Below are positions 2,835 through 24,879 of a DNA stretch of 44,219 bases, piece by piece; the stretch's first letter is position 1, and each line of letters opens with the position of its first letter. Location of the stretch: sequence record MK907227.1; one strand, 5' to 3'. Position numbers and translations under genes: made by a program. This stretch comes from Escherichia phage vB_EcoS-12210III. The notes under the pieces are model-generated. The model made no database searches. It was not told the DNA's origin and was given only the letters and a program-made list of their open reading frames with translations.

Positions 2835-4409
2835 ATGAGTGATGTTTTAGTTTGGGAGGAGCTATCCCAATCAGAAAAGCAAGCCATCAGGCTTCTTTCC
2901 ACGCATAACTTCGAGACATTCCTTCGGGTATGGTTCAGCCTGACACAGGGCCAGAAGTACATCATGAACTGGCATCACAGGTATCTTTGCAGGATAGTTG
3001 ACGAGATTATTAGCGGAGATCGAAAGGATACAATCATAAACGTATCGCCTGGCGCCGGTAAAACCGAGATCACATCCATCCACTTTCCAGTTTATAGCTA
3101 TCTAAAACTACCAAAAGTGCGAAATCTTAGCCTTTCGTTCTCTGATAGCCTGGTTAAGCGAAACTCTAAGCGAGTGCGCGACCTAATTAAGTGCAAGGAG
3201 TTTCAGGAGCTATTCCCTAGCAAGTTTGGCACGTGCAAGGATGATGAGATTCAGGTTCTCGATGAGTCAGGCAAGGTTCGCTTTGAGTCGATATCAAAAG
3301 CTATCGGAGGCCAGATTACAGGTTCACGTGGCGGCTACATTACTGACACCTATAGTGGTTGCCTTATGCTGGATGATGTAGATAAGGTTGATGACATGTT
3401 TAGCAAGGTTCGCCGAGAGTCGGTTCATATGCTCCTGAAGAACACCATTCGCTCTCGTAGGGCTAGCTCGGTCAAGGGTAAGGCCACACCAATTATTTCC
3501 ATACAGCAGCGATTGCATGTTAACGACTCAAGTTGGTTCATGGCTGAATCTGGAGGTATGGGGATAGACTTCGATGTGGTGAAGATTCCGGCGATAGTTA
3601 CTGAGGATTACATCGACACACTTCCTGACTGGTTAAAACCACACTTCGAGGCTGACGTTCTATCTAGTGAGTACATCGAGCGAGATGGTGTTAAGTACTA
3701 CAGCTACTACCCACAAAAGGAATCCATTCATGATTTAATGGCTATGCAAGACGCAGACCCATACACGTTCGCAAGTCAATATATGCAAAGCCCCATAGCT
3801 CTAGGTGGCAACATGGTGGATACGGATTGGTTTATACGTTACGGTGGAGATTTGCGAGCGCCATTGAAGTATGATTACCGATTTATTACTGCGGATACCG
3901 CGCTTACCACGAAGTCGTACAGTGACTTTAGTGTATTCCAGCTGTGGGGAGTAAAAGACAGAAAGCTATACCTTCTTGATATGGTTAGGGGTAAGTATGA
4001 AGCGCCCGAGCTTGAGGCTACCTTGCTAGAGTTTGAATCCAATGCGAGAAAGACTAATCGGGAGGAGGGTATTCTTCGGAAGGTAATCATCGAGAAGAAA
4101 GCATCTGGTATCGGTCTGATTCAATCTGCAAGCAGGGTTATGCGTACACCTATTGAGCCATTTATACCAGATACAGATAAAGTTACCAGAGTGCTGTCAG
4201 CAATGCCTCAGATTAAGGCTGGAAATGTAATGATTCCAGAATCGGCGCCGTGGATGAGTGCATTCATCTCTGAGTTTTCAGCATTTACAGCAGACATGAG
4301 CCACCGCCATGATGACATTGTAGATACAACAACAATGGCAATAAACTGCGAGCTAAACCTTGCAGATGACCCTAAATCGCGGATGTTACGCCTCGCAGGA
4401 ATTAAATAA
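2835..4409 (+). CDS. Terminase large subunit
   Basis: 524 aa; N-terminal P-loop (VSPGAGKTE), C-terminal nuclease-like region with conserved acidic residues; canonical position before the portal gene. Confidence 0.85.
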   Translation: MSDVLVWEELSQSEKQAIRLLSTHNFETFLRVWFSLTQGQKYIMNWHHRYLCRIVDEIISGDRKDTIINVSPGAGKTEITSIHFPVYSYLKLPKVRNLSLSFSDSLVKRNSKRVRDLIKCKEFQELFPSKFGTCKDDEIQVLDESGKVRFESISKAIGGQITGSRGGYITDTYSGCLMLDDVDKVDDMFSKVRRESVHMLLKNTIRSRRASSVKGKATPIISIQQRLHVNDSSWFMAESGGMGIDFDVVKIPAIVTEDYIDTLPDWLKPHFEADVLSSEYIERDGVKYYSYYPQKESIHDLMAMQDADPYTFASQYMQSPIALGGNMVDTDWFIRYGGDLRAPLKYDYRFITADTALTTKSYSDFSVFQLWGVKDRKLYLLDMVRGKYEAPELEATLLEFESNARKTNREEGILRKVIIEKKASGIGLIQSASRVMRTPIEPFIPDTDKVTRVLSAMPQIKAGNVMIPESAPWMSAFISEFSAFTADMSHRHDDIVDTTTMAINCELNLADDPKSRMLRLAGIK

Positions 4410-4457: not shown

Positions 4458-5726
4458 ATGGTCAAGACAGACAGCTACGCCAATATCTTTCTAGGCGGCA
4501 GTGATGGTAGTGAGATTTACGGGAGCTTGCAGAGCCAAGCCCCTACAATTCTAGCTTCGCTTTATGCGGATAATGCGCTGGTGCGTCGAATAATCGACAC
4601 AATCCCGGAAACAGCATTAGCGGCAGGATTCCACATTGATGGAATTGATGATGAGCCTGCATTCTGGTCGCGCTGGGACTACCTAGAACTAACAAAGCAC
4701 ATCAATGAAGCCTGGTCATGGGCGAGATTGTTCGGCGGTTCTGCCATTGTCGCTATCGTTAAGGACAATAGGGCGCTAACAAGTCCGGTCAGAGAAGGCG
4801 CTGAACTTGAAACTGTTCGCGTTTACGACCGTACGCAGGTAAAAGTCCAGACTCGCGAGGAGAACCCACGCAACGCGCGTTTTGGTAAGCCACTAACCTA
4901 TCGCATCACAACTAATGAGAGCGATATGTTCTATGATGTGCACTACAGCCGCATTCACATCATTGACGGAGAGCGAATTCCTAACGTAATGCGTCGGCAG
5001 AATGATGGCTGGGGCCGCAGCGTTCTCTCCAGTGACATTCTTGACTCAATTAAGGATTACACCAACTGCGAACTACTTGCTACGCAGTTACTGAAGCGCA
5101 AGCAGCAGGCGGTGTGGAAAGCCAAGGGTCTTGCTGAATTGTGTGATGATAGCGAAGGATTTGGCGCTGCAAGATTGCGCCTAGCTCAGGTTGATAACAA
5201 TAGTGGCGTTGGTCAGGCAATTGGCATTGACGCAGAGTCTGAAGAATACAGTGTTCTGAACTCTGATATTGGCGGGATTGATGCGTTCCTGGATAAGAAG
5301 TTCGACAGAATCGTTGCGCTGAGCGGTATTCATGAGATTATCCTGAAGAACAAGAACGTTGGCGGCGTATCATCAAGTCAGAACACCGCATTGGAGACAT
5401 TCCATAAGCTAGTCGATCGCAAGCGTAACGCTGAACTACTGCCGATTCTCGGGTTCCTGATTCCGTTCATTTCAGACGAGCAAGAATGGTCAGTGGAGTT
5501 TAATCCCCTAGCGCAGGAATCAAGTAAGGATAAGGCCGAGATTCTTGAGAAGAACGTAAACAGCATCGCGACGCTAATTGCATCTGGCGCTATGGATATT
5601 GACGAAGCGAGAGATACATTGCGCGCAATCGCTCCAGAGGTTAAGATTAGTGACGGTTCAGTAGAGACAGAGGTGACGATTAGTGAAACCAGTAACGACC
5701 CGCTGGAAGTATCCGCAGATAATTGA
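4458..5726 (+). CDS. Portal protein
   Basis: About 422 aa directly after the large terminase; start set to ATG 4458 (RBS GGAG) rather than GTG 4428, which lies inside the hairpin. Confidence 0.75.
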   Translation: MVKTDSYANIFLGGSDGSEIYGSLQSQAPTILASLYADNALVRRIIDTIPETALAAGFHIDGIDDEPAFWSRWDYLELTKHINEAWSWARLFGGSAIVAIVKDNRALTSPVREGAELETVRVYDRTQVKVQTREENPRNARFGKPLTYRITTNESDMFYDVHYSRIHIIDGERIPNVMRRQNDGWGRSVLSSDILDSIKDYTNCELLATQLLKRKQQAVWKAKGLAELCDDSEGFGAARLRLAQVDNNSGVGQAIGIDAESEEYSVLNSDIGGIDAFLDKKFDRIVALSGIHEIILKNKNVGGVSSSQNTALETFHKLVDRKRNAELLPILGFLIPFISDEQEWSVEFNPLAQESSKDKAEILEKNVNSIATLIASGAMDIDEARDTLRAIAPEVKISDGSVETEVTISETSNDPLEVSADN

Positions 5727-22968: not shown

Positions 22969-23012
22969 ATAGTATCGCATCCTTGCGATCAGTGTTTAGC
23001 AATTAGTGCTAT
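22969..23012 (-). promoter_or_regulatory. Conserved phage promoter unit (minus): palindrome at 22996-23012, 22-nt spacer, -10 TACTAT (22969-22974), leader CATCGAAACGA
   Basis: Reverse complement matches the family consensus; overlaps the 3' end of the Rha-like gene. Confidence 0.5.
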
Positions 23013-23656
23013 TTCTTTTCCAGCAGCAGCTTAATGTCAATTCCGAGATTATTCTCAATCAATCCAGTCAGCGCATCATTCTTTTCTTTAAGGGCGAAGC
23101 ATTGGGCTTCATACTTAAATCTTTCCTCCATCTCATCAGAACGACTAGCCCAACACTGGCGAGCCTCACAAGCCAGCATGTCTAGTTTTTCATCGGTACT
23201 CTTATCCATGAGTAAGATCTCATTTATTCTTTGCTCTGCAACAATGCGCTGGCTCAGGTGTGCATTCTGCGCATTAGCCACACCAAGCATCATTCGAACC
23301 TCTTTAAGTTCATTAATGCTTACCATCTGGCTGATTACTTCTGCTTGTTTTTTAACTAACGCCTCAAGCTCATGAAGTCGACGGATAACTCTGTGACGAA
23401 GAATGACGCTGTAGCCAGTTATTAGCGTTTCTGTAAGTTCCTTGTTAAGTAAAATCTCTGATGTATAGCCTAAATTATCTGTAAGTACTTGATAATCCTC
23501 ACTCCTTAAGTATGAGGAGTTGTTATAATGTATCAAATCATTGATCATTTCCTTGGCATCACGAATTACCTTATTATGTTCTTTACCAGTTAACCCCGCG
23601 ATCTCTTTGGTGCTCATCATGGCAACGTTGGTATCTTTAAATGGCTTGATATTCAT
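23009..23656 (-). CDS. Rha-family phage regulatory protein (putative)
   Basis: N-terminal motif STKEIAGLTGKEHNKVIRDAKEMI resembles the Rha signature (GK.H..V.RD); start taken at ATG 23656. Confidence 0.5.
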   Translation of the reverse strand: MNIKPFKDTNVAMMSTKEIAGLTGKEHNKVIRDAKEMINDLIHYNNSSYLRSEDYQVLTDNLGYTSEILLNKELTETLITGYSVILRHRVIRRLHELEALVKKQAEVISQMVSINELKEVRMMLGVANAQNAHLSQRIVAEQRINEILLMDKSTDEKLDMLACEARQCWASRSDEMEERFKYEAQCFALKEKNDALTGLIENNLGIDIKLLLEKK

Positions 23657-23657
23657 T

Positions 23658-23987
23658 TTAACCGCCAAAAATTTTATTAATCAATTTATCAGCATCATCC
23701 TGAGACAGCTTCAATCTCTCTATTGGCTCTGGTTTTTTGCCTGTAACATTCCATCCTGTACATTTTCTTTTTATGTCAATACGCCTTGAGACTGAGTAGT
23801 AAGAGGCAACTTCAACCCTTTCAACAACCCCATAAGATTCAAGTTCAAGCAAGGTCCTCCTTGCGTTAGCCCTTTGGATTCCTGTCAATCTAGATACATC
23901 ATCCGCGGTAGGGCTGTACCTATCGCATCCTTCAGTGCAGTGTAGTATGCAATCAATTACCTTTTTTCTTGTGCTTGTCATTCTCAT
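23658..23987 (-). CDS. Winged-helix DNA-binding transcriptional regulator (putative)
   Basis: 109 aa; HTH-like segment (DVSRLTGIQRANARRTLLELESYGVVERVE); strong RBS GGGAGG; leader contains a palindromic half-site array. Confidence 0.5.
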   Translation of the reverse strand: MRMTSTRKKVIDCILHCTEGCDRYSPTADDVSRLTGIQRANARRTLLELESYGVVERVEVASYYSVSRRIDIKRKCTGWNVTGKKPEPIERLKLSQDDADKLINKIFGG

Positions 23988-24035
23988 CTTTCATCCTCCC
24001 GTTATGTATGCGATGAATATACTCGTTAACTCATA

Positions 24036-24101
24036 TGTAGTCAATATTGCTGACTACATTTTATTGCAGTCACTTCAAATGACTACATTTAATTGTAGTC
24101 A
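24036..24101. promoter_or_regulatory. Array of five 8-bp half-sites in alternating orientation: TGTAGTCA (24036), TGACTACA (24051), TGCAGTCA (24066), TGACTACA (24080), TGTAGTCA (24094)
   Basis: Read from sequence; spacing 15, 15, 14, 14 bp; lies between the -10 of the regulator gene promoter and its start codon. Confidence 0.6.
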
Positions 24102-24152: not shown

Positions 24153-24196
24153 TTAATAAATGAAATTATCAGAATGTCTTTAGCAATTAGTGCTAT
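24153..24196 (-). promoter_or_regulatory. Conserved phage promoter unit (minus): palindrome 24180-24196, 22-nt spacer, -10 TATTAA (24153-24158)
   Basis: Reverse complement matches the family; drives the winged-helix regulator gene. Confidence 0.5.
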
Positions 24197-24318
24197 TTAT
24201 CGCCAATTTCACCACAAATCACGGTTACACGTAACCGATGTAACTCGATGTATGCAATCTCATCCGCGAAAAATGATATACGCGCTGTTACGCCAATTTA
24301 CGCATTAGTTACATTAAA

Positions 24319-24388
24319 ATATCTATATATATCAACCTTTTACTCTTATTATTATTATTATATATATTACTGTGTATATCATGTAACT
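24319..24388. repeat. AT-rich ~70-bp repeat, copy A (ATATCTATATATATCAACCTTTTACT...(TTA)n...TATATAT...TACTGTGTATA)
   Basis: 26-bp exact match plus microsatellite-containing tail shared with copy B at 41355-41425. Confidence 0.8.
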
Positions 24389-24549
24389 ACTTCTATAGAG
24401 TGTTCCGGTTATAATTTTAATATCATGTGGATTTATACAGTATTGCGCGACAGCTATACCAATGCACCATTAGCAATAAATGATATACACGATATACACG
24501 ATGGTTACATTGAGCTATGGCTGGGCTGAGATGCCAAGAAACGTAACTA

Positions 24550-24879
24550 GTGGTAATACCTACACGGGATTACAAAGGATTCACGCGTAAGTTTAAATCA
24601 ACGATTGGTGAAACCAATTGGACTGGCTACAGTGCCGAATATATAGTTAACTCATCGAAAGCAAACAACCAGAGAGATGCAGAAATGACCTACTACATTA
24701 TCAAAGAGAAAAACAACGCACTGTTCGGCGACTGCTATTTTGGTGGCCCAGCTGGATACACCACGAATAAGAGCGAGGCTGACAGATTCGAGACTAAAGA
24801 GGAAGCTAGGGATGTACTGAACGGATACTTCACTGAAGAAGATTTGAAGTCTGTTAAAGTAGTTAAGGTTAAGGAGTAA
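24550..24879 (+). CDS. Hypothetical protein (start uncertain; internal ATG at 24676)
   Basis: ORF from the track; no clear RBS at either candidate start. Confidence 0.4.
   Translation: MVIPTRDYKGFTRKFKSTIGETNWTGYSAEYIVNSSKANNQRDAEMTYYIIKEKNNALFGDCYFGGPAGYTTNKSEADRFETKEEARDVLNGYFTEEDLKSVKVVKVKE

Follow-up and report, generated by a model that had tools for sequence, protein, structure and literature searches.

In this virulent T1-like phage of the vB_EcoS-12210I group (genus Veterinaerplatzvirus, Drexlerviridae), a divergent control region between the leftward and the rightward operons contains five alternating 8-bp repeats, and the question is which molecule reads them and for what purpose. 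The window, meaning the whole stretch of DNA analysed here, is the complete genome of 44,219 bp; over the 2.1 kb compared, it is identical to 42 near-identical vB_EcoS-12210I isolates. To the left of the repeat array, the minus-strand operon begins with a winged-helix gene (23658..23987), followed by genes for a Rha-domain protein (23009..23656), a lipoprotein and a DUF6453 protein. The plus-strand early recombination genes, encoding an exonuclease, ERF and SSB, lie to the right. The two genes closest to the array on its left, both on the minus strand, agree with a sequence-only reading of this DNA that had named a winged-helix regulator gene and a Rha-like protein. The winged-helix protein of 109 residues, recognized from its open reading frame, weak profile matches and an AlphaFold model, is the candidate array binder. 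A ribosome-binding site, GGGAGG, can be read on the minus strand at 23995..24000, 7 nt 5′ of the ATG at 23987. The downstream gene encodes a Rha-domain 'anti-repressor' (PF09669, phrog_8235). Its ATG follows the winged-helix stop codon after a gap of 1 nt, so the pair looks translationally coupled, and the Rha gene is presumably the co-transcribed, regulated cargo of the winged-helix gene.

The array is composed of half-sites A to E. Half-site A, TGTAGTCA on the plus strand at 24036..24043 (TGACTACA on the strand of the gene), is promoter-proximal and overlaps the predicted −35 element. Half-site B at 24051..24058 has the opposite orientation, reading TGACTACA on the plus strand and TGTAGTCA on the minus strand. 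Half-site C at 24065..24072 is again in plus orientation and reads TGCAGTCA, with one mismatch. Half-site D, TGACTACA on the plus strand and thus in minus orientation, lies at 24080..24087, and the promoter-distal half-site E, TGTAGTCA in plus orientation, lies at 24094..24101. The start-to-start spacings are 15, 14, 15 and 14 bp, and the alternation of orientation is strict. The five alternating 8-mers at 24036–24101 had been noticed before and are as described, except that the third site, previously placed at 24066–24073, is one base further to the left. The perfect palindrome TGACTACA-TTTAAT-TGTAGTCA is likewise read directly at 24080–24101.

The array is real, non-random and unique within the phage genome. 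The exact 8-mer TGTAGTCA has six copies in the genome, counting both strands, compared with 1.28 expected, and none of 100 shuffled sequences reaches six; four of the six copies fall inside the 66-bp array. Inverted pairs 10–18 bp apart, with up to one mismatch, are limited in the whole genome to the four pairs of the array, and each of 30 shuffles gave none. No such inverted pair occurs outside the array, which fits a purely local (auto)regulator. All five 8-mers of the window are unchanged in L216 and L217, including the variant TGCAGTCA of half-site C.

To characterize the candidate binder, we modelled the winged-helix protein with an alignment of its family (pLDDT 82); a single-sequence AlphaFold model (pLDDT 48) was set aside. 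The predicted structure contains helices at residues 5–19, 28–35 and 39–51, strands at 55–81 that form a four-strand wing, and a C-terminal helix at 96–107. The recognition helix is predicted at about residues 38–51, QRANARRTLLELES. The model thus has the three-helix bundle, recognition helix and β-wing of a generic winged-helix domain. The best structural matches in Foldseek are SlyA, MarR, MepR and TFE-α, and the top PDB matches are all winged-helix regulators; sequence and fold searches of the PDB returned generic winged-helix regulators alone, at E values of about 1e-3. At E ≤ 0.1, the Pfam matches of the window protein are TrmB (21.3 bits; cut-off 25.6), HTH_IclR (20.3 bits; cut-off 22) and DprA_WH, all below threshold, and no MarR model (PF01047 or PF12802) is among these three. 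Four other family members match MarR weakly, with best E values of 1.8e-5 to 2.7e-5, and weak LexA_DNA_bind matches are found too. Membership of the MarR family was considered and rejected: the Pfam matches are below threshold, the protein has 109 residues compared with about 140–150, and it has no MarR N- and C-terminal dimerization helices. The target-normalized Foldseek TM-scores against MarR/SlyA chains are 0.37–0.45. The window protein is a member of an unclassified winged-helix family and belongs neither to MarR nor to LexA.

This family is very rare. It comprises six 90%-identity clusters among 5.8 billion proteins, all apparently in T1-like or unknown short contigs. A word-based search with the window protein returned one 97% identical cluster only. 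Exhaustive HMMER searching of 1.84 billion representatives gave four further relatives (P0002–P0005) with 34–40% identity over the matched stretches; in alignments with the window protein their identity is 26–39%. A profile search added P0006 (41% identity), and the final profile search added none. When the window protein, P0002 and P0005 were run by tblastn against 50,697 phage records, family members came up only in the 42 near-identical vB_EcoS-12210I isolates, and family scans of the IMG/VR and JGI metagenomes found zero members. A literature search on the 8-mer, the genus, Drexlerviridae anti-repressor promoters and Rha/winged-helix autoregulation found nothing relevant.

Rare as they are, the distant homologues share the layout of the window. 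In every member locus (the window, L218 and L220–L223), the Rha-domain gene is directly 3′ of the winged-helix gene; the junction is a 1-nt gap in the window and a 4-nt overlap in L218, and the gene order is the same in L220–L223. Directly upstream of the winged-helix gene, every locus has four to five alternating 8-mers at a spacing of 14–16 bp, and in every relative the gene-proximal last site reads TGAC..CA towards the gene. In L218, where the ATG is at 491, the sites are TGACATCA (413–420), TGATGTCA (427–434), TGACATCA (441–448), TGGTGTCA (455–462) and TGACATCA (469–476), in a 14-bp phase. L220 (ATG at 125) has TGACATCG at 39, TGATGTCG at 53, TGACACCA at 68, GGATGTCA at 82 and AGACATCA at 98. 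L222 (ATG at 124) has AATCATCA at 38, TGATGATA at 52, TGCCATCA at 67, TGATGACC at 81 and AACCATCA at 97. Four sites each are found in L221 (ATG at 1319), with TGAGGTCA at 1218, TGACTTAA at 1232, TTAGGTCA at 1246 and TGACCTCA at 1260, and in L223 (ATG at 5001), with TGATGTCA at 4933, TGACATCA at 4947, TGATGTAT at 4961 and TGACATCA at 4975. When L218, L220 and L223 are compared, the sites are 81–91% identical and the spacers 33–61%. An ANT domain is added to the Rha protein in L222 alone.

The position of the cassette varies among the T1-like genomes. The leftward arm carries it in the window (23009–23987) and in L221 (1319–2286), where it diverges from the early genes. In L218 (491–1323) and L223 (5001–5485), it lies within the rightward early operon, between a 64-residue gene and a DUF3799 exonuclease gene. 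The L223 cassette has a Rha gene reduced to 49 codons, and its first half-site overlaps the stop codon of the upstream gene.

We compared the core of the sites with the recognition helix of each protein. In the window, the helix IQRANARR is paired with the core TGTAGTCA (TG-TAG-TCA). The helix xDRGNVRR, in P0002, P0003 and P0006, is paired with TGATGTCA (TG-ATG-TCA) at three loci. P0004 combines the helix LDRGSVRR with the core TGATGRYN, and P0005 combines MDVSNARRE with TGAGGTCA (TG-AGG-TCA). The invariant Arg43 and Arg44 of the helix parallel the invariant outer TG..TCA of the sites, and the co-variation as a whole rests on four distinct specificities. The Rha protein does not follow the same pattern. 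The Rha proteins of the window and L221 are 73% identical and the cores differ, whereas those of L218 and L220 have no detectable similarity and the core is common to both. In L223, Rha is truncated to 49 residues and the array is intact; in CEB_EC3a and ZL19, Rha is 83–84% identical to that of the window and no array lies upstream of it. A core that follows the helix and not Rha is what would be expected of a cognate protein–operator pair; RNA hairpins, a host factor or binding by Rha do not explain the pattern.

These comparisons divide the two binders that had been proposed from the sequence. The winged-helix product is favoured by the co-variation of the core with its helix, as well as by the recurrence of the layout upstream of distant homologues in the relatives; the Rha-like protein is disfavoured, because the core ignores Rha similarity. 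That the array is bound by the adjacent Rha-domain protein or by a host factor is, in our judgement, quite improbable. Rha (Phage_pRha) is a presumed DNA-binding domain and is adjacent in every locus, and exact TGTAGTCA clusters in many unrelated viral contigs without this winged-helix family indicate that other proteins evidently can use the motif. However, the array outlives truncation of Rha, phages with a closely similar Rha do without it, and a host factor leaves the four different cores in similar phages unexplained.

We next consider where the array lies relative to transcription. The sequence-only reading had placed a −10 element at 24153–24158 on the minus strand and the array in the transcribed leader of the winged-helix gene. 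This −10 was not recovered by the promoter scan. The top σ70-like match on the strand of the gene is TTGACT-17-TATATT at 24044..24016, with 10 of 12 consensus matches. Its predicted −35, TTGACT (24039..24044, minus strand), is made of half-site A and the preceding T, and its predicted −10, TATATT (24016..24021, minus strand), has a homologous TATATTCATC in L221. Predicted promoters with a 17-bp spacer and a −35 from a half-site are found also in L221 (TTGACC/TATATT), L218 (TTGACA/TAGAGT), L220 (TTGACA/TAAGAT), L222 (TTGCCA/TATACT) and L223 (TTGACA/GATAAT). In L218, L221, L222 and L223 this is the sole sense-strand promoter-like match, and in L220 it is the better of two matches, the other being antisense. 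A half-site thus supplies the −35 of the best sense-strand σ70-like promoter at each of the six loci, with the reservation that all six are consensus matches and that the half-site's own TGAC supplies part of each −35 match. With the best promoter having half-site A as its −35 and the same arrangement in the five other loci, the leader reading in its simple form is not supported; most of the window array is probably at or upstream of the predicted promoter. A longer 5′ UTR that includes the array could still arise if transcripts read through from the conserved leftward promoter region. The arrays of L220 and L222 begin about 15 bp past a strong intrinsic terminator, so there the cassette must drive itself from its own promoter. 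Additional sites cover the start region as well as the promoter spacer in L218, L220, L222 and L223; the arrays of the window and L221 run upstream from the −35, a geometry that is also compatible with activation.

The position of the promoter bears on the proposal that the array acts as RNA, in which hairpins in the winged-helix/Rha leader would form the mutually exclusive stems 1:2, 2:3, 3:4 and 4:5 and serve as an attenuator, a processing element or a stability element. We regard this as unlikely. The minus-strand (sense) RNA folds well (−28 kcal/mol, z = −5.0), and the mismatch of half-site C becomes a G–U pair on the sense strand; however, strong folding is inherent to any palindromic operator array. 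Hairpins need no common 8-mer within an array, nor would they need TGATGTCA to be common to three diverged loci, and they leave both features unexplained. The predicted promoters put most sites upstream of the transcription start, the sense strand has no U-tract after any stem, and no Rfam family came near any threshold. Position 24076, in the spacer and within the extended D–E stem, varies between C, A and T among close relatives; selection on an extended 14-bp stem around D–E was dropped as an idea because of this variation among three bases. Since each array has one core, any change of core looks compensatory, and RNA covariation counts cannot separate a hairpin from an operator. An intrinsic terminator or leader attenuator was also rejected, as the sense strand carries no G+C-rich stem followed by a U-tract. 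The terminator-like match in the array, ATGTAGTCA..TGACTACAT followed by TTTATT, with three G–C pairs, is on the plus strand only and is antisense; the sense strand has none.

The operator interpretation can also be set against phages that do not have the module. In most T1-like phages, the intergenic DNA is common with the window from about 24175 or 24226 rightwards, and neither the array nor the winged-helix gene is present; the other Drexlerviridae in the phage collection are also without the winged-helix/array module. Relatives that have Rha downstream of different DNA indicate that the winged-helix gene and the array are an accessory insertion of about 500 bp. Just upstream of the Rha gene of CEB_EC3a, at about 2427–2449, there is a palindrome, TACGAAATTTTCGTA/GTGATACGAAATTTTCGTAGCAC, and just upstream of the Rha/KilA gene of IME253, at about 3252–3296, the direct repeat (G/A)ATTTGAGGAG occurs twice. 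On this evidence, every variant of the leftward operon seems to come with a control site of its own.

Within the shared intergenic DNA, the region 24170–24600, which is conserved across Rtp-like phages, is rich in further repeats. GTTACA/TGTAAC occurs there five times compared with 0.24 expected, including the palindrome CGGTTACACGTAACCG at 24222–24237. Three copies of GATATACAC or its complement (24372, 24482 and 24491) are found in this region and none elsewhere in the genome, and a (TTA)n/TATA tract lies at 24340–24370. These repeats are candidate early-promoter operators or an origin. The open reading frame listed at 24550–24879, with 109 residues from a GTG start, has probably been drawn too long: in L218, L221 and L223 the homologous proteins have 64 residues and begin at the position of M46 (MTYYIIKEKNN..., about 24685).

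A 48-bp island of homology to sites E–B, TGTGGTCA..TGACCACA..TGCAGTCA, is found in IME253 (2497–2548), ZL19, TR3 and phiA2-1, phages without the winged-helix gene. It closely follows the KilA/Rha stop codon, and an unrelated 89-residue gene lies downstream of it. The outer pair is altered on both arms (TGACCACA/TGTGGTCA) and the perfect palindrome is kept, as is the variant TGCAGTCA of half-site C. The island may be a recombination remnant, a hairpin or the site of another protein. Alone among the observations, it speaks more for a hairpin or another binder than for a winged-helix operator: a palindrome is maintained there through changes in both arms, next to a KilA stop codon and with no winged-helix gene. 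Because the island is isolated between unrelated flanks, it also suggests recombination at module boundaries, and it could be asked whether the array itself is a recombination scar or a chance repeat without present function. This we find barely credible in view of the 8-mer count and inverted-pair statistics against shuffled sequences, the conservation of sites over spacers, and the repetition of the layout in six loci with 26–41% identical proteins.

The motif itself is not restricted to this family. We scanned IMG/VR for the two palindromes of the array and found 54 and 55 loci, which is about the chance number. At 22 of these 109 loci, 4–11 copies of TGTAGTCA/TGACTACA lie within 200 bp, whereas two control 8-mers of the same composition form clusters in 0 of 36 and 1 of 65 loci. 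The cluster contigs range from 0.32 to 0.68 in G+C; the clusters include L096 (3539–3698), L114 (13312–13786), L113 (6143–6377), L104 (2960–3275), L095 (4096–4322), L083 (2708–3204), L034 (8057–8153), L072, L056 and others. They adjoin integrases, primase-helicases, HTH_17 or HTH_36 proteins, or a Phage_rep_O gene. Pfam analysis of 45 flanking open reading frames gave no single common family, and BLAST/phmmer searches at the palindrome loci found no winged-helix homologue and no relatives of the module.

The genes beside these clusters raise the possibility that the array is a set of replication or partition iterons and the winged-helix protein an initiator or centromere-binding protein. Origins and centromeres typically have repeat arrays to which small winged-helix proteins bind, some of the TGTAGTCA clusters adjoin primase-helicases and one a Phage_rep_O gene, and the window protein has a weak local match to phrog_678 'replication initiation O-like' (E = 3e-4), while one family member weakly matches Phage_rep_org_N. 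We nevertheless judge this explanation very improbable. The initiator similarity extends over the generic winged-helix portion only, a partner ATPase or GTPase is missing, and the arrays always overlap the predicted promoter of the winged-helix gene itself. In addition, the module is missing from nearly all T1-like phages and its genome position varies, which excludes an essential origin of the family. A λ O-type initiator in particular was rejected: the phrog_678 match is weak and stands alone, the protein has 109 residues, and the module is absent from the other Drexlerviridae in the collection.

Having weighed these alternatives, we consider that the array is likely the autoregulatory operator of the winged-helix protein, overlapping the promoter of the winged-helix/Rha operon, with binding predicted from the comparison of sequences. 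The earlier guess of an operator array with autoregulation thus gains comparative evidence, and the leader or RNA-hairpin alternative that accompanied it does not. In the proposed mechanism, one winged-helix domain would read each TG-nnn-TCA half-site. Monomers or dimers would occupy the alternating half-sites, and neighbours may touch across the dyads, possibly via the C-terminal helix, which would give cooperative occupancy of about 70 bp. With the promoter-proximal half-site serving as the −35, occupancy would exclude RNA polymerase. The outcome would be negative feedback on the winged-helix gene and the translationally coupled Rha gene, and probably on the lipoprotein and DUF6453 genes too. 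The cassette is an accessory, self-contained module found at different places in T1-like phages. What is inferred in this mechanism is that the protein binds, that it does so cooperatively, where transcription starts, and that the effect is repression rather than activation.

The proposed operator can be compared with known systems. In the immI region of P22, the gene for the small repressor Arc directly precedes the antirepressor gene ant and is co-transcribed with it; Arc binds cooperatively to an operator within the Pant promoter and so turns Pant off. Similarly, a small DNA-binding gene lies here directly upstream of, and coupled to, an 'anti-repressor'-type gene, the candidate operator would overlap the promoter of its own operon, to judge from consensus matches in six loci, and negative autoregulation by several cooperative subunits is predicted from sequence. 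There is no homology to Arc or P22 Ant, the regulator being a winged helix and the cargo Phage_pRha. Arc is a ribbon-helix-helix protein that binds one 21-bp operator as a dimer of dimers, whereas here a winged-helix protein would bind 4–5 half-sites over about 70 bp. Unlike P22 Ant, the cargo is a Rha-domain protein in a virulent phage without a known repressor to antagonize. No new principle is involved, since P22 already provides a small autoregulated repressor encoded upstream of an anti-repressor gene.

With regulators of the MarR, SlyA and LexA type, the window protein shares the fold of three helices and a β-wing, together with inverted-repeat half-sites that overlap predicted promoter elements. 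However, it has one short C-terminal helix in place of the MarR N- and C-terminal dimerization helices, and a run of 4–5 alternating half-sites, about 1.4 helical turns apart, replaces their one or two palindromes. Binders of repeat arrays include plasmid ω (heptad arrays), MetJ (tandem met boxes) and λ O (four palindromic iterons). As in these systems, many short sites, direct or inverted, would be read by small polymerizing proteins, and the number of sites varies by locus. Plasmid ω and MetJ are ribbon-helix-helix proteins with contiguous sites, whereas the 8-bp sites here are separated by AT-rich spacers of 6–8 bp; the iterons of λ O, in contrast, lie inside the O gene and serve replication.

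A more far-reaching version of the operator model, which we put forward tentatively and think less probable than not, is that the protein polymerizes head-to-head and tail-to-tail on half-sites about 1.4 helical turns apart and forms a filament over its own promoter, with the cassette being a mobile, specificity-switching unit exchanged by virulent T1-like phages. If so, the cassette would possibly time an anti-repressor-like activity against resident prophages or host regulators. The TAG, ATG and AGG cores, set against the Q-R-A-N-A, D-R-G-N-V and D-V-S-N-A helices, would then be a ready-made recognition code.

Regulation in the T1-like phages (Drexlerviridae) is almost uncharted, although these phages are popular for therapy, and most of them carry a Rha/KilA-type 'anti-repressor' without an assigned role. 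Pairing a rare winged-helix family with its own candidate operator array gives an orphan gene a testable function. The predicted operator of the window has an odd number of half-sites that alternate in orientation at intervals of about 1.4 helical turns, a geometry unlike the usual design of one or two palindromes. Finally, the four natural pairs of protein and site specificity would be useful for dissecting or engineering winged-helix recognition.
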